From Eledone cirrhosa (Eukaryota): 64,000 bases of DNA. The position numbers and the translations under genes were made by a program. The DNA is taken from NCBI GenBank assembly GCA_964016885.1, contig OZ024743.1, positions 302,560,001 to 302,624,000 on the forward strand. The letters run 5' to 3'. Under the pieces are notes generated by a model that was not told the origin of the DNA, made no database searches, and was given only the letters and a program-made list of their open reading frames with translations. This document shows positions 3,547 through 57,356 of this stretch, in pieces. The stretch's first letter is position 1. The number at the start of each line of letters is the position of its first letter.

Positions 3547-5711
3547 TGTTTCTTTTATTTGCCACTAGGGCATCAAAAGTGGGACAAGTACAAAGGGGGG
3601 AGTTTACACAAAAAGGCGTCCTCAATAAGGAGGAGGCAATAACAAAATATAAAAATAAAATAAGATATAACAAAAAATAAAATTTATAACAAAATCCTCA
3701 ATAGAGAGGAGGCGCCTTGGGGGGTCGCACACACACCCGAAAAAAGTGTGCAACCCTTTTCCTCAGGAGCACAGAGAGGGGGTGCTCCCTCGTTCCTTCC
3801 TCTTTTCCACCTACAGGCTTATGTAAAGAGAAGGCCCATTCACACGGGCCATTCTTGCCACTTTCACCCACCTTTCATAAAAACGACTGAGGTGCAGCAC
3901 CTCTCTCTCCATCATGATCCTTCTTCCGAAATGATATCGGAAGAAACGGACCAGTTGTTGGCCAGAGAGAAAGGTGCCTGACCTCAGTCCTTTCAGACGC
4001 GTCCACCATACAACCTCTTTCGCCATGGCTATTACGCACAGAAACACCGCCTCTGCTTCATCTTTGAAGGGGGGAGGCGGCTTGATCATTACAATAGACT
4101 CGGTGGTCAACCGGATCGGTCCCACCCTTGACAGCAGTTGTTCGACATAGCCCCACAGATCGGCTACGCCCGAGCAGTGTACCAATGCGTGTGCAACGGT
4201 TTCCTCGTCGCACACGCATCTGGGACAGATCTTTTTGGCGGGGTCCCTACCCGGGCGCCCGTGTCTGTAGAGCCTTTCTCGAACGGGTAAAGCCCGTCGG
4301 TAGCACTGCCAGGCCAGGGACTTCTGGAAGTTGTCCATAGGTCCCGGGCTGAATGTCCTACCGAACAGGCTGGCCAGTTCGTCCTCCTCCATGTCTAGGG
4401 CTTCTCCGAGGGCGTCGTCGCACTTGCTGCGTACCAGCCCTCTATAGAATGTTGCGGTGGAGTCTCCACTGATAACCGGATCCGCCTGCCAGAGGGCGGT
4501 GGGCGCCTGGGCACACTCAGTGTGCCAGGCGCCCAGTTTTCTCGGTCTTTGCTTGACCCAGGATTGCAGCTCGGTGAGTGAGACGAGTCTGGGAAAGGTT
4601 CGTCTCACAAACGAGACCCACACCGGTTGTCCGGTGAGGAATACGTAGAGGTGCCGTAGCCTTAATGCGTGTTTACGCATCATTAGCCACGGCATCCCCA
4701 GCCCTCCTTTCGAAGGGTGTTGACAGCAGATTGATCTCGTCACCATAGGAGCCCGCCTCTTCCAAAGGAATTGGAAGAGCGCGCGCTCCATCTTGGTGAG
4801 GGTTTCCCTTGGGCAGGGCACTACGGTCAGGCGGTAGTAGATGACGGACGCTATATAAGTGTTTGCCACCTCCGCCTGACCTTTCAGGGATAGTTTGCAA
4901 CTGGCCCACTTCTGGGTCAGTGCAAACACTCTGTTCGTAACCTCCGCCCAGTTTTTCTCCACCTGGAGGTCCGGTCCGAACCAGACCCCGAGCAACTTCA
5001 CCGGGCCCTCCGTCCAGCGTCCGACGACGCCATCGGAGGGCATCGGTCTGCCCCTCCACGTGCCGAGTTACAAACCGATCGACTTGTCCCGGTTCAGCTT
5101 AGCCCCTGTGAACTTTTCGTACTCCTCCAGTAAGGTGCCGACCGCCTCGATTTCGGAGGCCGTCGACACCATTACTGTCACATCATCGGCGTAGGCTGAC
5201 ACCGCTTTCCGCAATCCCGGTTCCAAAGGGATGCCCTGCAACAACTCCAACTTCCGCAGTAGTGGCTCGAGAGTCAACACATACAGAAGGGAGGAGAGAG
5301 GGCACCCTTGTCGGATGGACCGCGCGATTTTGAACGGCTCCGAGAGGTAGCCGTTCACCTTGACCCTAGAGCAGATGCGGCTGCTGTGCATAGCAGTGAT
5401 CCAGCCCCTGAAAACGGGTCCGAAGCCTGCCGCCGCTAGCACCGCATCCAGGTAACCATGGTCGACCCTATCGAACGCCTTAGATTGATCCAAGTTGATC
5501 AGAGCCCCACCAAAGCCGGGTTCGTTCCCAACCCTCTCTATGATGTATCGCATGAGGTGGAGGTTGTCATGGATGGACCTGGACGGGATAGCGCATGTCT
5601 GCGCATCTCCCACCAGGTTGCCCACGACAAGCGCCAACCTCTTTGCTAGCACCTTGGCCAAAATCTGTAACTCTGTATTTAGCAGAGTTATGGGCCTGAA
5701 GTTACTTATTT

Positions 5712-5712
<1 letters not shown>
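3547..5712 (-). mobile_element. Tx1/L1-clade non-LTR retrotransposon, 5'-truncated, flanked by (GATA)n on both sides
   Basis: RT motifs NFRPITLLN, LDQSKAFDRV, RQGCPLS, SAYADDV (5068..5710). C-terminal zf-RVT-type CPRC..EETVAHALVHC (3811..5043). The 3' UTR ends AATAAAAGAAAC then (TATC)n. Confidence 0.92.
3811..5709 (-). pseudogene. Tx1-like ORF2 remnant (RT and C-terminal Zn finger), frameshift near 5050-5070
   Basis: ORFs 5068..5760 (first ~16 aa are microsatellite) and 3811..5043 are homologous to 43693-45432. Confidence 0.85.
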
Positions 5713-5757
<45 letters not shown>

Positions 5758-6308
5758 CATTTATATTCAAAACAATAGCAACAATAGTTCAAATATTGTA
5801 AAACATAAAATGACACGATACAAATACATGTTTAATATGTAGTTTAAGAATATTTAATATAAATTTATATATAGTTTATCTATAGTTAATATATAGTTTA
5901 AGAATATTAATTTGCGTTTACATTATTCAACTGTATTTCTCACGACAAATAAATATTTTCAAACAATTAATTTCTCACGACAAATAAATATTTTCAAACA
6001 ATTAATTTCTCCCTCTATTGTATGAACTATTTCAGGCCATACTCTGCGTAAATAACGAGGTAGTATAGAGTTTGGAACAATACACAGAAAAACTGCAGTG
6101 TCACATTTAATACGATAATTGGGAAATTACTCGAATATTCCAACTTACTTTGTTAAACATATGAGGCCTAGCGTATTTGTGTGCAGTATGACTACTTCTC
6201 GTTAGCAATGCTGTTGATATTCAAAATCAGTGTTACACATGCACACATAAACTGATACACACTCACAGATGCGAACACACGTGCATACAGCGGTGTATAT
6301 ACACACGC

Positions 6309-6310
<2 letters not shown>

Positions 6311-6379
<69 letters not shown>

Positions 6380-6400
6380 TGTATATATATATATGTAAAC

Positions 6401-6450
<50 letters not shown>

Positions 6451-6471
6451 GTTTACATATATATATATACA

Positions 6472-6549
<78 letters not shown>

Positions 6550-6590
6550 TGTATATATATATATATATATATGTAAACCTTTATATATAT
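6311..6590. repeat. (TA)n tract with alternating inverted motif tgtaaacctttata / tataaaggtttaca
   Basis: Direct reading of the sequence. Confidence 0.85.
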
Positions 6591-6897
6591 AAATTGAAAC
6601 AAAATGAAAACGAAATTTCATTTCTCACTCTTAGTATGGCACTTACTTAAATGTAAGTATGCATGTATACGTACATACATATATGTATACAGACGTACAG
6701 TAGCATGCACATATATATATATATATACATATATACATACATATGCATACAGGTACACATACATATATGCACGTATCAGTTTAGCGGCGCTTATTATAAC
6801 GTCGCTTTGTTCGTTTGTAAACAAACTGAACAGCCTGAATTTATGCCATACGGTGTTAAGGCAACCACGTCACCTTTTTGTTCAACACTGACACAGG

Positions 6898-6942
6898 AAC
6901 GATGTACTAGTTTCAAGCTTGTTAGCTATCATCAGCACCGTT
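6898..6942 (-). ncRNA. Type I hammerhead ribozyme (array 1, unit 1)
   Basis: AACGGUG-CUGAUGA-U-AGCU(AACA)AGCU-U-GAAA-CUAG-UA-CAUCGUU: 7-bp helix I, canonical core, palindromic helix III ACUAGU, GUA site. Confidence 0.88.
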
Positions 6943-7176
6943 TACCCATCTGCCAGATAGTTGAACGTTCGAAAGTATATACTTTCCTTATGAAATTAAC
7001 GGCTGAGCAGCCTAATTTGAATATTGAGTGAGTTAAATCGGTCAGGCATACCGAAAACGATAAATTGAAACAAAATGAAAACGAAATTTCATTTCTCACT
7101 CTTAGTATGGCACTTACTTAAATGTAAGTATGCATGTATACGTACATACATATATGTATACAGACGTACAGTAGCA

Positions 7177-7260
<84 letters not shown>

Positions 7261-7422
7261 CATACATATGCATACAGGTACACATACATATATGCACGTA
7301 TCAGTTTAGCGGCGCTTATTATAACGTCGCTTTGTTCGTTTGTAAACAAACAGAACAGCCTGAATTTATGCCATACGGTGTTAAGGCAACCACGTCACCT
7401 TTTTGTTCAACACTGACACAGG

Positions 7423-7467
7423 AACGATGTACTAGTTTCAAGCTTGTTAGCTATCATCAGCACCGTT
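7423..7467 (-). ncRNA. Type I hammerhead ribozyme (array 1, unit 2)
   Basis: Identical to 6898-6942. Confidence 0.88.
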
Positions 7468-7895
7468 TACCCATCTGCCAGATAGTTGAACGTTCGAAAG
7501 TATATACTTTCCTTATGAAAATTAACGGCTGAGCAGCCTAATTTGCATATTGAGTGAGTTAAATCGGTCAGGCATACCGAATACGATAAATTGAAACAAA
7601 ATGAAAACGAAATTTCATTTCTCACTCTTAGTATGGCACTTACTTAAATGTAAGTATGCATGTATACGTACATACATATATGTATACAGACGTACAGTAG
7701 CATGCACATATATATATATATATATACATATATACATACATATGCATACAGGTACACATACATATATGCACGTATCAGTTTAGCGCGCTTATTATAACGT
7801 CGCTTTGTTCGTTGGTAAACAAACTGAACAGCCTGAATTTATGCCATACGGTGTTAAGGCAACCACGTCACCTTTTTGTTCAACACTGACACAGG

Positions 7896-7940
7896 AACGA
7901 TGTACTAGTTTCAAGCTTGTTAGCTATCATCAGCACCGTT
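7896..7940 (-). ncRNA. Type I hammerhead ribozyme (array 1, unit 3)
   Basis: Identical to 6898-6942. Confidence 0.88.
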
Positions 7941-8337
7941 TACCCATCCGCCAGATAGTTGAACGTTCGAAAGTATATACTTTCCTTATGAAAATTAACG
8001 GCTGAGCAGCCTAATTTGCATATTGAGTGAGTTAAATCGGTCAGGCATACCGAAAACGATAAATTGAAACAAAATGAAAACGAAATTTCATTTCTCACTC
8101 TTAGTATGGCACTTACTTAAATGTAAGTATGCATGTATACGTACATTCATATATGTATACAGACGTACAGTACGATGCACATATATATATATATATATAT
8201 ACATATATACATACATATGCATACAGGTACACATACATATATGCACGTATCAGTTTAGCGGCGCTTATTATAACGTCGCTTTGTTCGTTTGTAAACAAAC
8301 TGAACAGCCTGAGTTTCAACTATCTGGCAGATGGGTA

Positions 8338-8382
8338 AACGGTGGTGATGATAGCTAACAAGCTTGAAACTAGTACATCGTT
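8338..8382 (+). ncRNA. Hammerhead copy in the inverted unit, C3G core mutation (probably inactive)
   Basis: aacggtg-GTGATGA-tagctaacaagctt-gaaa-ctag-ta-catcgtt. Confidence 0.7.
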
Positions 8383-8751
8383 CCTGTGTCAGTGTTGAAC
8401 AAAAAGGTAACGTGGTTGCCTTAACACCGCATGGCATAAATTCAGGCTGTTCAGTTTGTTTACAAACGAACAAAGCGACGTTATAATAAGCGCCGCTAAA
8501 CTGATACGTGCATATATGTATGTGTACCTGTATGCATATGTATGTATATATGTATATATATATATATATGTGCATGCTACTGTACGTCTGTATACATATA
8601 TGTATGTACGTATACATGCATACTTACATTTATATATATATATATATATCATAAAACATGTCTATAGAATAACCAGATAACATATATACCGTTTCCTCTC
8701 CCAATTAGCATAATTAACCATATAAAATATATATATATATTTTTTTTTTTT

Positions 8752-9270
8752 CGCGTATGCTTGTGTATGTACGTATATGGATGCGTGTATGTATTTATTT
8801 AATTTCTATTACCTCTGTATTTTATTTACTTTATTATTAACTCTTAAGCCGAGAATCATTCGGTCTCCTAGTTAGAATTTTAGTCTACGACTTCAGTTAT
8901 ACCATTTACGTGGTTTTGTCTTTGCGTGCAATTGTTCTCCTCGTACCACATATCTTCGTTGTTTCGGTTCATTGCCAGAAAACGTCTCTATGAACCACTT
9001 AATAGAATGTTAGTCTACGACTTCTTTTATACCGTAAACGTGGTTTTGACTTTGCGTGTAATTGTCTTTCACCGCTCCAAATAATTATATTCGTTTTTTC
9101 CCGTTCATTGCTAGGGAACGTTTCCTCGAACCAAAGTATCGTCTTCCTGTCTTCCTCAGGTAGCAACGTTTTTTGAAATATTTACTTCTGCGTTCACAGA
9201 TTGACTTTGTTAGTTTCAGAAGATCCCGTTAATGGGGAAAATATCGATCTTTGCTTAAACTTTAATCTGT

Positions 9271-9272
<2 letters not shown>
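8752..9272 (+). mobile_element. Non-coding 3' end (pLTR/UTR) of the PLE family found at 61981-64000
   Basis: Aligns by eye with 63500-64000 (tttacctctgtat, agaattttag.ct, tatcgtcttcctgtcttcctc, ttagtttcagaagatccc). Followed by (TA)n. Confidence 0.8.
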
Positions 9273-9307
<35 letters not shown>

Positions 9308-9491: not shown

Positions 9492-9548
<57 letters not shown>

Positions 9549-9707
9549 GTTGAAAAGTTAACACACTATAGAGCGATAGTGTGCCAACAGTAAAAGAGGA
9601 AAAACCACCAGTGTATGGAATCTATAATCTATGGAAGGCAGGGTAGACAAACAATAATTAAAAATAGGAATTAAAATATATATACGCCCCTCTATAACTA
9701 TATAACA

Positions 9708-9788
9708 CACGCGTACAAATCCAAAGAGGTCTATTTCGCCAGGAAGTTGTTGACTGAAATTGAATAGCCTATGGTTCATCAGCGCGTG
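9708..9788 (-). ncRNA. Type I hammerhead ribozyme (array 2, unit 1)
   Basis: CACGCG-CUGAUGA-ACCA...UGGC-GAAA-UAGA..UUUG-UA-CGCGUG: perfect 6-bp helix I, canonical core, extended helices II and III. Confidence 0.82.
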
Positions 9789-10245
9789 CAACACTTTACA
9801 TTCCAGACAACTCTAAGAGAATCTAAAGCGACCGTCCTGCTACACGCGGCTGAGAGAGATCACAGCGTGTTTATGGCAGTGAACCTGTGGTATCTGAGGG
9901 ACGACCTGCTAGAAAGGGCTGCCCCAAAACCACTCAGGAAGTGTGCTCAACCAAACAGAGATAGAGGAAAGACTGTTATATGGAGCGAAATATCACGATA
10001 AATTAACAGAGCCATAGACTCTCGTTATTCTCTGTCAATAATGTGCTCAAAGGTAAAGGAATCCTGATTTATTTAAAATACAATATGTTGAAAAGGTAAC
10101 ACACTATAGAGAGATAGTGTGCCATCAGTAAAACAGGGAAAACCACCAGTGTATGGAATCTGTAATCTATGGAAGGCATGGTAGACACACAATAATTAAA
10201 AATAGAAATTAAAATGTATATACGTACCTCTATAACTATATAACA

Positions 10246-10326
10246 CACGCGTACAAATCCAAAGAGGTCTGTTTCGCCAGTAAGTTGTTGACTGAAATGG
10301 AATAGCCTATGGTTCATCAGCTCGTG
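10246..10326 (-). ncRNA. Type I hammerhead ribozyme (array 2, unit 2)
   Basis: CACGAG-CUGAUGA-ACCA...UGGC-GAAA-CAGA..UUUG-UA-CGCGUG, with one helix I mismatch. Confidence 0.75.
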
Positions 10327-12199
10327 CAAGACTATACATTCCAGACAACTCTAAGAGAGACTAAGGCGACCCAATATTATTCCCTGTTAATAATGTGCTC
10401 AAAGGAAAGGGAATCCTGAGCTTATCTTTAAAATACAATATGTTGAAAAGGTAACACACTATAGAGAGATAGTGTGCCATCAAAAAACAGGGAAAATAAA
10501 CCAGTGTATGGAATCTATAATCTATCACTGTATTGTGTGTTACATTTTCAACATATTGTATTTTAAAGAGCTCAGGATTCCTTTTCTTTTGAACACATTA
10601 TAGACATGAATAACGAGAGTCTATGGCTCCGTCAATTTATCGTGATATACATATGCCCAGGAAAACTCATTCCTTTAAGCTCATTTAATTACACGATTAT
10701 ACGCGAGTCCTTTGCTCCGTTATTTTACTTGATATTTGCTCCTTGCACTCTCTCTGCTGTTGAGCACCATAATTTGAATAGTATAGGCTGCCATATCTAG
10801 CAATTTGTTCTATTCTTGCCACCGGTTACTGCCTTGCGCACGCATATACATTATAACTACACGTGCGAGGTAGTTTACTTTAGTTCGCTCTAGTAGGGCA
10901 GACAATATCGGCCTTCCACATGTTGATGACACACAGGACCGAATTGGAACCAACTTAAATGGCGAAACATTCTCCTGGTGAGTTTGTACATGGGTGACCA
11001 AGGTATGAGTTTGGTGTGTCATTTTAATTTATACTTTTAATTTTAATGTTTTTCCTATGCCTCTATTAGCTTATATTCTCTTCACGCTGGTGGTTTGAAA
11101 TTCCTGTAAAGAAAAACACACTCTTCTGTGTCTTTCCCCTCTATATATTATATATATATAATAACATACTTGTAAGAAAGATAATTCTCATTTTGACATG
11201 TACTTTGCAAATTGGTGGAAGGATTTAATTATCAATACTTTTTTGATGATATATTCAGTATGTCAATAACCTTATAGTTGACACGTTATATAATGGTTGC
11301 ATGTGAAATAGGAGATACACACATTTCCAACAAATCTCTTCATGGCCAAAAGTAGTTTAAGCTCGTAAACAAAGGTAAAACAATTGACACATGTGTTGGA
11401 TTATATTGAGTGTAGAGCTGTGTCCCACATTAAAGTGCGTTTGATTGATCCGTTGTTTCTCCTATAAGATATGTACGGGTATTATATTGATTTTGATCAA
11501 CCGCTTTCCTATTTGTGAAGAAAGAGTGATTTTTCGTTTCGGACTATTTCCAAATGCTAGTTTTGATGACAATAAAACTGAGGTGTACCTTTCTGTTTAT
11601 TATATTTTAACACTTTGTTTCGTGCGCTTTTCCCAACACACATAGATCTTGAACAGTATCATCACTGAAAATAACGTTTACTTTTACAATAAAGGATATA
11701 TTTCTCATCCCGAGTAAAGTCTCTACGAAACGTTGTGTCGTGGATATGTAGTAATTGTTATTTGTTGGTGCCTCATTAGAGACAAGCGGCATACATTTCA
11801 ATTTGACGTTGGACCGTTAGCCTTAGGTCGTAGGTATTACATTAGGAGGCAAGGTGGCAGTTATCCAGGCTGGTTTGTGGCTACTAGATGCTAGCAAAAA
11901 TGTGGAAGATTCAGGGTCTTAGAAGGACGAGTGTTACAAATAACACTATTCAAACCATAAGTCGGACCATGACAGGTACTACCACCCAGGACAAAGTTAT
12001 GAATAATGGTAAGTAATCGGTAACACCATACTCCCCAGAACTAAAGAAATATCGAACTAAAGCCTCACCACCGGTTGCAGTTTAGTGACGTGCCGATGAC
12101 AGTGATGTCACCATCGCAGTTAGCTAGGTGTGGGCAGATGAACCCCGAGTTTAAACATAGTGTTAGTTAAGTGCACATTGCACTTCACGTAAAAAAATG

Positions 12200-19261: not shown

Positions 19262-21580
19262 TTAGGAATTTATAAATTTCCGGTTGTTTGATTGGTTCCA
19301 CAACCAGACGGTTGTTCATATGTTGTCAAAGTTATTTCGTCACACGTTATGTGACCTTTTCAGTGACTGGGGATTATCTTCTTTGTTTTTGTGCCTCTCC
19401 TTTGTTCTGTCCTATGCCATCTTGTTTTTGTGTGTGTTGTGTGCTTGGTTTGCACATGTGTTACATCCGAGTGTCCGTGTGTATTTATATTCGTTTATTT
19501 ATTTGTTTATTTACATGTTACTGGTTGGTTGTTTGTTCTATGTGTGTGTGTGTTTTCATTTCGTCCTTAATTGTAAGTTTTAATGTTGCTGTTCCATTCA
19601 TGTTTTCTATTTAATTTTGGTTGTAGTTCATTTACTTTTATTGCCTCTGTGATTTGTCTGAACATTGCGTCTTTTCTATGTGTAGATTCTATTTTTATTT
19701 CTATGTTCTCTAATTTACCCTTATGTTCTATTTTAGCATGTTGGTGGAGTACAGATGATTCTTTATTATCTTGAAGCTCTCGCCAGTGTTCATCTATCCG
19801 TTCCCCTATACTACGAGCTGATTCACCTATGTACACTATATTCTTATCTCTACATTGTCCTTCAGTACATCTTATGCTATATACTACATTTCTAGTTTTA
19901 CAGTTAATATGGGGGCTTAATTTGCAGATTATACATTTTTTATCTATACAGGGAGGTCTTTGAAAAGGGTATGTATTGTTAATAAGTGTTTTTATGGAGG
20001 TACCTGGTCTTTCTACTATCTTATTATTGAGTTTATGTTTATCTAGGGCCCTTCTAAATTTGTGAGCTAATTCACCTCTATGGGTTGTATCGATGAACGT
20101 TACACTCTGGTATTTATTGCTATCATACCATGAGTTTATTCTATTAACCTTATTCCTACTTCTTTCTATTCTATTCCAAAATGTGCTCCTATACAAGGGG
20201 AAGGTACCATTTGTATCATTATTTATCATTTTTTTCCCATTTGGTTCTGGCTCCTCTATATACTCTGAATTTATCTCTCTGATTGTAACCAGAGAACTGC
20301 ATACGGTGGAAGAAGTGCTGTATGTGTCTGTCTAGTTCTTTGGGGTTGCACATGCGGAACACGTTTCTCAGCACCCGTACCCAATCCGCAATCAGTATGT
20401 TGATTTTAGTATGGTCCGAAACAGCTGAGTTTCGGTGCATCAGATATTTGGAAGTCATGGGTTTGGTATAATGGGATTGGAGGATTTGTTTTTTGTTATT
20501 AATGGTATCTACCCAGAGCTCTGTGTCTAGTACAGGTAATCGATGGTTGGGGTGTTTACTTGGGTAGACTATAGTAACTCTAATACTCTGGTGGATGGAG
20601 TTAGCTATTTGCTGGATGCTTTCCATGTTTTCTCTAATTCCGGACTGTTCTCTAGTGGGGGTGTTTTTACTACGATGTTTATATCATCAATGTAGCGGGA
20701 GTACATTATCAGGGCTAAGAGGTTGCTGTCTTCTAATTGTTCTGTAAGTTTAAGTTTAAGTCCATTGTCCGACCATACCATGAATAGGTTAGCTATGTCA
20801 CCTGCAATGCTAACACCAATGGCTGCTCCCTCCTCTTGGGCATATGTTTTTCCATTAAATTTGAACATATGTTCCTGAAGGGTTAATTTTATACTGGCCC
20901 CCACCGCATGTGCAATCATTTTCTTTAGTTCATCGTGGTTTTAGGGGGTCCGTATGGCTCTGGTCCACCCGTTCCATCTATCTGTGTGGGTTTTCTTGGC
21001 CATTGAGGTAATGGTAGGTGGTTTGCCTCTTTCTGGTCTTGTAGGGCACAGGTTGCTAAGGTCATATGTATCTAAATAATCATTACTATGGGTAAGTTTA
21101 AATAGGAGTCCCAGCTCACTGGTATCAATCCCATGGAATTCAACATTGGTCTCACTGATCATTTCTACGCATTTCTCCACTGCAAAATCCACGTCAATTG
21201 CTGGACACAGGGACACAACAGCTATACTACCTATTATTCAGTCCTCCGTGCTATCACATATATCTGGGAACATTTCAATGATGGGGCTTATTATCAGGGA
21301 GAGGAAGTAGGAAAGTCTGTAATTACTAGCAATATTAGCTCCAGAGACGGGCCGTGTTGGTGGTCCTGTGACAGGGTCACTGCTCGTTTTATGGTCTTTT
21401 CGAAGCCCATAAAACGCTGGCACGTCATTGTTCCAGGCCCGGAAGTTGTTGGCAGTCCTTTCTTTGGCTGCATTATATTTGTCCACATCATAATATTTGC
21501 ATTGAGGGTTTTTTCCCTATACTCATGCTCCTGTGGTGTTACTTCTCTTGTGTTAGAGATGTGGGGTTGCATTGCCTGGA
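19262..21580 (-). mobile_element. Penelope-like retroelement (RT plus C-terminal GIY-YIG endonuclease), decayed
   Basis: FYGLRKDHK..PTRPV (21238..21486), YSRYIDD (20605..20919), LPVLDTELW..HYTKPM (20219..20626), CIDKKCIIC..NVVYSIRC..VYIGESARSIGERIDEH (19567..20229). Confidence 0.9.
19325..19367 (-). ncRNA. Degenerate hammerhead motif in the PLE 3' region
   Basis: GUCA-CUGAAAAG-GUCACA(UAACG)UGUGAC-GAAA-UAAC-UU-UGAC. Helices I and II are perfect, but the core deviates from CUGANGA. Confidence 0.5.
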
Positions 21581-56393: not shown

Positions 56394-57356
56394 TATATTA
56401 ATAAAAGGAATTCCAAGTTTGTCTGATTGGCTCGTTTTATTTACAATCCTTTAAAAATTATAATGATATTATAATTAACTAGTATGCTGTAATATTAAAT
56501 GTTAAGTGTTAATTGAACAAGTATGTTCATGCTTTCGCAATCTTAAGTATCATATTCTATAGTGGCAGTCAAGTTTGACATTTTTAACTGTAATGAGATG
56601 GATAAATTATGTGCCTTACATACAGTAAAAAGGGGCTACAGAATGCTAAGTTTTACAAACTCTATTTCGACCAATCGGTGTGTAGTTTCACTAGATTATT
56701 AAAGCTGATTGGTTTAGGCGTCACGGTTGATTGAGCATGTTTATCGACTTCTATTTGACACTATCCAAAGCATCAATTGTTTTGCTATTTTTAGAAATGA
56801 TGAAAATAGCATTTTCTATGGTTTTTATAAAAACTCTTCATAAATCATCAACATCAACATCACTTTTATTATTATTGTTATTGTAATAAAAGTGATGTTG
56901 ATGTTGATGATTACTGAAGATTTTTTATAAAAACCATAGAAAATGCTATTTTCATAATTTCTAGAAATAGCAAAACAATTGATGCTTTGGATAGGGTCAA
57001 ATAGAAGTCGTTAGACATGCTCAACCAACCGTGACACCTAAACCAATTAGTTTTAGTAAAGTGAAACTACACACCGATTGGTCGAAATACAGTTTGCAAA
57101 ACTTAGCATTCTGTAGCCCCTTTTTACTGTATATAAGGCATAGAATTTACCCATCTCATTACAGTTGAAAATTGCAAACTTGACTGTCACCACACATTAT
57201 GAACCTGAAGATTGCGAAAGCATGAAAATACTTGTTCAATTAACACTTAATATTTAATATTCTACCATGCTCTTTCATTATAATATCATAATAATTTTAA
57301 AGGATTGTAAATAAAACGAACGAGTAAATCAGACAAAGTTGGAAATCCTTTTATTA

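Follow-up and report, generated by a model that had tools for sequence, protein, structure and literature searches.

The locus examined here raises the question of how an array of short units without an open reading frame (ORF), most of them carrying a hammerhead ribozyme motif, came to stand inside a (TA)n tract, and by which enzymes it was put there. The array lies in a window of 64,000 nucleotides of Eledone cirrhosa DNA (the whole stretch that was analysed), taken from a 3.0-Gb genome rich in (TA)n and retroelement pieces. A preliminary description had proposed a young non-autonomous retrozyme mobilised by a Penelope-like element (PLE). Insertions with identical units, the lack of ORFs and the PLE-type ends agree with that proposal: the element is likely a retrozyme that borrows PLE enzymes, with self-cutting and copying through an RNA circle predicted. 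What appears to be new here is unusually clear genomic evidence of retrozyme mobilisation by a PLE.

Unit positions 1–473 are numbered along the reverse complement of window positions 7587–8059 (unit 3, the reference). The array and its surroundings are made up as follows.

6311–6589, no strand: left (TA)n target tract with short fold-back interruptions, called from the sequence
6590–6647, minus: 58-nt 'tail' (unit 416–473), present at this outer end and missing from the other
6590–7060, minus: unit 1, 471 bp, which stops on its 3' side at the downstream fixed end (unit 473)
6898–6942, minus: type I hammerhead motif 1, predicted cut 6905|6904
7061–7586, minus: unit 2, 526 bp, with the TA tract expanded at 7180–7269
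7423–7467, minus: type I hammerhead motif 2, predicted cut 7430|7429
7587–8059, minus: unit 3, 473 bp, GC 36%, the reference unit
7896–7940, minus: type I hammerhead motif 3, predicted cut 7903|7902, after unit 157
8060–8316, minus: unit 4, 5'-truncated (unit 220–473)
8315–8316, no strand: head-to-head junction of the two arms, 2-nt overlap
8315–8632, plus: inverted arm, 5'-truncated (unit 97–415); its 3' end is the upstream fixed end 415, without tail
8338–8382, plus: the inverted arm's hammerhead motif, predicted inactive, with C3G at 8345 as a private change
8633–8650, no strand: right (TA)n target tract, called from the sequence

Units 1–3 differ from one another by three to six substitutions (about 0.5% change per unit), and their difference in length is confined to the internal TA tract. 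The longest ATG frames in the unit, 40 aa in sense and 60 aa in antisense, both cross that tract; the units are near-identical and non-coding, as had been noticed before. An ORF with RT and GIY-YIG between pLTRs, the criterion for an autonomous EN+ PLE, is absent from the array. The inverted arm (8315–8632) is 99% complementary to unit 1. Its C3G change, also noticed before, is a G at 8345, at a position that reads C in nearly all contig depth of the sequencing runs examined; C3G abolishes hammerhead cleavage (PMC11167929). The array had been said to start at (TA)n, which is correct for its left end, but the right end abuts (TA)n as well. No target-site duplication was discernible inside (TA)n at the fetched loci. 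The window array is a single insertion of a large repeat family. As a side observation, the fold-back motifs in the left TA tract (6311–6589) form an inverted duplication of the target beside the insertion, and at locus L099 a target sequence (a Hydra ORF piece) is also duplicated in inverted orientation beside the insertion.

An exact 31-nt pattern of the ribozyme core had 13,460 matches in the genome, compared to 0 for the reversed control. The hammerhead motif is not due to chance, and the genome-wide count, which the preliminary description had called for, excludes an assembly artefact for the class. Multiplying 13,460 by 0.47 kb gives, roughly, at least 6 Mb for the family, or about 0.2% of the genome; its subfamilies span a range from identical down to about 77%. 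When the pattern was loosened by leaving out the U, 7,663 further matches appeared and, among the matches listed, these belonged mostly to a 466–468-bp sister family. Both a 424-bp subfamily and the 466-bp sister keep the unit junction, the ribozyme and both ends, with 67% identity over 249 nt; in the sister family the 67%-identical stretch crosses the unit junction, and the family's ends fall at the two homologous sites. The sister units (L291–L294, C1 5.74 and 30.83 Mb) are 466–468 bp long and have a G10.1–C11.1 pair and a GUU site. A two-armed sister insertion contains about 20 identical units, with 18 of the 18 measured units identical across both arms.

Since some insertions have identical units, the lineage has been active recently; the window copy is slightly older than these youngest insertions. 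The internal TA tract had been held to make the unit length variable. The difference in length does lie there, but units of the youngest insertions are of nearly one length and, therefore, the variation likely arose by DNA-level slippage after insertion. We found the family in independent run contigs of organism A. For organisms B and C there was a share of words only (1 short contig and 0 contigs, respectively), and their presence was not counted. As part of an snRNA-type promoter we considered an octamer that lies 88 nt upstream of the core and resembles newt satellite 2 (PMC2220036); both the 424-bp subfamily and a very young sister insertion have it in altered form, and this candidate was dropped. 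Separately, we observed a two-armed 310-bp tandem family (L166:1–2600, L099) with the same U·U and 4-nt loop 2 architecture as the ribozyme described below and with fully changed helices.

The motif scan confirmed three identical type I motifs on the minus strand at the positions first proposed, with predicted cuts spaced 525 and 473 nt. The core is CUGAUGA/GAAA with a GUA site, and the elements of a type I core (CUGANGA, GAAA and UH with helices I–III) are all present; the ribozyme core begins at unit 127. Helix I has seven pairs, one of them G·U, and helix III has two pairs within a 6-nt palindrome. Helix II has four pairs with a U10.1·U11.1 mismatch at its base, so that there is no Watson-Crick pair 10.1–11.1. 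The earlier word 'canonical' thus suits the core and the GUA site, but not the mismatch or the outcome of the Rfam search, where no family matched the window array at the gathering score. The best Rfam hammerhead match was Hammerhead_HH9, with 18.5 bits against a gathering score of 52 (E 0.31); Rfam miRNA matches were discarded as TA-repeat noise. U10.1·U11.1 is found in natural hammerheads (PMC3088659) and, as it is published as natural there and in HHR_Amex2, we treat the motif as a known variant rather than as strict consensus.

Among 76 copies of the motif, taken from 27 loci, position 7 was variable (T, C, G) and the other core changes were scattered singletons. For an analysis of covariation we aligned 12 representative motifs from this family, the 424-bp subfamily, the 466-bp sister and the 310-bp family. 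Eight of the 13 ribozyme pairs were changed on both sides, with 94% of cells paired; the covariation score was 0.564, compared to at most 0.147 in slid controls, in which at most 52% of cells were paired. This is a strong signal, but the shuffle control gives no probability because the 12 aligned motifs are related. Covarying helices and an invariant core, kept across ORF-less families down to 67% identity, suggest that the ribozyme is under selection.

The lowest-energy fold of a single motif is an inactive one, and the helix III palindrome is predicted to yield a 6-pair duplex. Such a duplex would be consistent with the dimer mode of hammerhead cleavage described in PMC4209133. Ribozyme activity in this family is a prediction from sequence. 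Eight of nine Xenopus retrozyme dimers were without cleavage.

Animal non-LTR retrozymes have been reported from coral, mussel and axolotl (Cervera and de la Pena 2020, PMC7229834), and a survey of 35 genomes treats them as derivatives of PLEs (Li, Clavereau, Pollet, bioRxiv 10.64898/2026.07.22.740005). The preliminary description had left it to a database check whether the element is undescribed; the class is published in these two sources, a ribozyme with the same U·U architecture included. Judged by sequence criteria, the family fits the published class. Like the retrozymes of PMC7229834, it consists of ORF-less tandems with one type I hammerhead each, GC below 45%, thousands of copies and PLEs alongside. 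Unlike those retrozymes, which are 150–450 bp long, it has a unit of 473 bp with an internal TA tract, and it is known here from DNA only. In architecture, the level at which the two were compared, the motif resembles axolotl HHR_Amex2 (Rtz_353), which also has U·U at the base of helix II and a 2-pair helix III, and which cleaves weakly as a monomer and efficiently as a dimer (PMC7229834). HHR_Amex2 has a tetraloop, whereas loop 3 here has 2 nt within the 6-nt palindrome.

The definition in bioRxiv 10.64898/2026.07.22.740005, a run of no fewer than two units carrying a complete type I hammerhead, applies to this family as well, and a link to PLEs is common to both. There the link consists of co-occurrence and pLTR similarity, whereas here it consists of an insertion footprint, with no pLTR match in the PLE families reached. 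The sections of PMC7229834 drawn on here contain no account of fixed dual ends, of (TA)n targeting or of head-to-head arms. In the sections of the literature covered, which include PMC7229834, bioRxiv 10.64898/2026.07.22.740005 and term look-ups in PMC7761336, no tail-and-inversion footprint is reported for retrozymes; subscription papers, Repbase/Dfam and supplements may contain the family or the footprint.

The main signature of the family, absent from the preliminary description, is the pair of head-to-head arms that end at two sites 58 nt apart. In the window the order is (TA)n, a minus arm ending at unit 473 (truncated at 220), a plus arm running from 97 to its end at 415, and (TA)n again. 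Family-wide, insertions lie within (TA)n, with two arms head to head and with outer ends at the same two fixed sites. Across the genome, 1,821 unit-473 ends and 3,433 unit-415 ends run directly into TATA; these counts come from exact patterns and are lower bounds, not comparable with each other. Among the ends listed for C1 0–91.7 Mb (40 and 100 ends), outward-facing pairs less than 6 kb apart were 17 of 473+415, none of 473+473 and one of 415+415, the last being two separate insertions. For 40 loci taken in order along C1 we found 22 pairs of 415+473 (four of them repeats within one duplicated locus), and the single 473+473 pair was a mis-called internal junction. At these 40 loci 66 of the 71 called ends were followed by TATATA, and three of the remaining five were internal junctions.

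An inverted truncated arm and a one-sided tail are hallmarks of PLEs, a (TA)n bias is reported for Hydra and Naiad (PMC8557442), and PMC11167929 shows that the PLE tail corresponds to the segment from one RT start site to the other. The family shares with EN+ PLEs of the Hydra clade (PMC8557442) and with PAc (PMC11167929) the (TA)n target, the inverted 5'-truncated arm, the one-sided tail and the hammerhead upstream of the two ends. On the other hand, it has no ORF, and it consists of whole-unit tandems where EN+ PLEs have an ORF plus pLTR. Its tail of 58 nt compares with 30–40 nt in published EN+ PLEs and about 60–92 nt in autonomous families of this genome, which show the same two-ended TA pattern. 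Marks of a PLE-mobilised element are present, namely the inverted 5'-truncated arm, the one-sided tail between fixed ends and the microsatellite target. Tail-and-inversion ends are a PLE signature, so that PLE machinery very likely inserted the family, a reading in which we place high confidence.

A parent or partner PLE was sought with four PLE endonuclease pieces as protein queries, best hits only. The searches reached an older Neptune/Nematis-like family and three Hydra-type families (L256:3904–6042 minus, L257:3052–5301 plus and L153:2175–4319 plus), whose first-look candidates number in the tens of thousands. The Hydra-type open frames, young and intact, are 713–750 aa long, and one, when translated, has the RWR, DKT and CxCx5C motifs; the assignment to Hydra was made by comparing translation motifs with PMC8557442. 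Pfam gave no family for any of the four PLE proteins scanned. In the families reached by best hits, both Hydra-type and Neptune/Nematis-like, the pLTRs and ribozymes differ from the unit. Chimeras of the family with Hydra elements, the 310-bp family and another repeat (L065, L094, L116, L254, L255) were not used to name a partner, because an insertion beside an older element with target deletion can explain their junctions. One of them, L116:1800–4870, is symmetric, with Hydra endonuclease pieces at both outer ends and retrozyme units inside. Tail length was also set aside: 58 nt is nearer to the Neptune/Nematis-like family (about 60 nt) than to Hydra families (about 88 and 92 nt), yet tails range over about 55–70 nt among homologous ORF-less families and are not diagnostic.

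The unit could instead be simply the pLTR of an autonomous PLE, a possibility that the preliminary description had named against itself, with arrays formed by local amplification of truncated ends into minisatellites, a route discussed in bioRxiv 10.64898/2026.07.22.740005. The ends and the target are of PLE type, one sister array shows local amplification, and the search for a parent took in the best hits to four protein queries; a parent PLE that is rare or extinct may lie outside them. However, no autonomous PLE with the unit as its pLTR was found among those best hits, where the Hydra-type and Neptune/Nematis-like families have pLTRs and ribozymes of their own. The 473-end pattern continues with a base other than T at 69 places in the genome, and in the 30 of these that were read it led 29 times to the next unit or a TA-rich tract, once to an AT-rich flank and never into a PLE ORF. 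A homologous ORF joined in sense occurred at none of the 40 ordered loci, and both arms of dispersed insertions are already multimeric. We consider this origin improbable. Still less can be said for an assembly artefact or a plain satellite with a chance motif. No listed run contig bridges the window's own junction, which at such low cover proves nothing, but copies with unique flanks and junctions are dispersed by the thousand, and the private substitutions of single units, the covariation and the run contigs of organism A stand against an explanation that we regard as scarcely credible.

As for the template, we looked at where the arms end on their 5' side. For 82 ends at 41 junctions, two independent events fell within 5 nt of unit 158, compared to about 1.9 expected if ends were even (values pinned at 1 and 353–356 are split-query artefacts). 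A linear cleaved monomer was rejected on this count, since without a 5' pile-up at the cleavage site the template would be either a circle or an uncleaved multimer. A circle would explain the arms of many identical units, the retention of a ribozyme in an ORF-less lineage, and a variant at L097 that is present in all four units of one arm and absent from the opposite arm. The circular monomer folds well, with z −8.3, or −3.7 without the TA tract (60 shuffles). One sister array of 31 units has periodic shared variants and at L061 the two arms have variants in common, signs that long arrays are also extended at the DNA level. On these data we favour, with moderate confidence, a circular RNA as the template.

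The competing view is that of a non-autonomous PLE passenger copied from long uncleaved multimers, with a ribozyme that is slow or merely trims and with no circle. A multimer derived from a uniform source array would leave an identical genomic pattern, and this view accounts equally well for both fixed ends, for the inversions and for the scatter of 5' ends. PAc used unprocessed RNA and inserted in vitro without need of its ribozyme, at whose site no reads ended (PMC11167929); most tested Xenopus dimers were inactive, and U·U weakens helix II. Nevertheless, the covarying helices and invariant core suggest a selected ribozyme, and in axolotl a ribozyme of this architecture cleaves as a dimer and yields circles (PMC7229834). 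Moreover, 5' truncation should shorten arrays in each generation, whereas very young insertions carry many identical units. We take copying from uncleaved multimers to be unlikely, though a serious contender.

The circle-based account would run as follows. Arrays would be transcribed into multimers, in which the helix III palindrome would let neighbouring ribozymes pair; they would cut after unit 157, and the released monomer would be closed into a circle by a host ligase. Both strands of (TA)n would then prime arms that end outward, with starts at 473 and 415; the genomic footprint of this step is observed, and its chemistry is presumed. The enzyme would run round the template, writing up to about eight like units per arm (a dozen or more in the sister family), until copying breaks off at random and the arms are joined head to head by their 5' ends. 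Comparison of young with old copies shows that TA slippage and point changes such as C3G come afterwards. Taken as a whole, the account of an ORF-less, PLE-inserted tandem family written into (TA)n by the RT-endonuclease of an autonomous PLE, likely from a circle, seems to us reasonably probable. We propose more tentatively an active lineage in which the ribozyme-made circle may be the direct rolling-circle template of a PLE enzyme, with both target strands primed from two obligatory, non-interchangeable starts, sometimes on two separate RNAs.

The spread of retrozymes has so far been argued from co-occurrence and pLTR likeness, and here a PLE footprint is seen at thousands of sites. With very young copies and intact PLE ORFs in one genome, the circle as template and the role of the hammerhead of PLE type become testable together. 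The strict pairing of one end of each kind constrains models of PLE integration. If a circle does serve as template for the PLE enzyme, the thousands of insertions would document circRNA retrotransposition, and asymmetry in PLE integration, directly for the first time.

Other elements of related kinds were seen nearby and elsewhere. About 170 fetched loci contained more than 12 distinct hammerhead families, and the genome hosts a dense community of (TA)n-targeting elements of PLE type. At window positions 9540–10650 lies an unrelated ORF-less tandem family with a spacing of 538 bp, which starts at (TA)n and ends in an inverted piece. It has hammerhead-like motifs with long helices II and III on the minus strand (9706–9790 and about 10244–10328) and 2,151 first-look candidates in the genome, the best other copies being 90–93% identical. 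At 8749–9284 on the plus strand a young Hydra-type PLE family (85% to L256) is represented by its 5'-truncated 3' end; the ribozyme-like motif there has A at position 4, a core change, and, at the base of helix II, a U·U. Further PLE pieces, a GIY-YIG end and an N-terminal piece, were found on the minus strand at 19567–20331 and 689–1063, respectively. The minus-strand stretch 3811–5760, interrupted by (TAGA)n, belongs to a Tx1/L1-type LINE, of which it is the 3' part (RVT_1, E 1.5e-26). Finally, a minimal hammerhead motif at 57197–57241 on the plus strand resembles one downstream of a Neptune-like endonuclease in L122.
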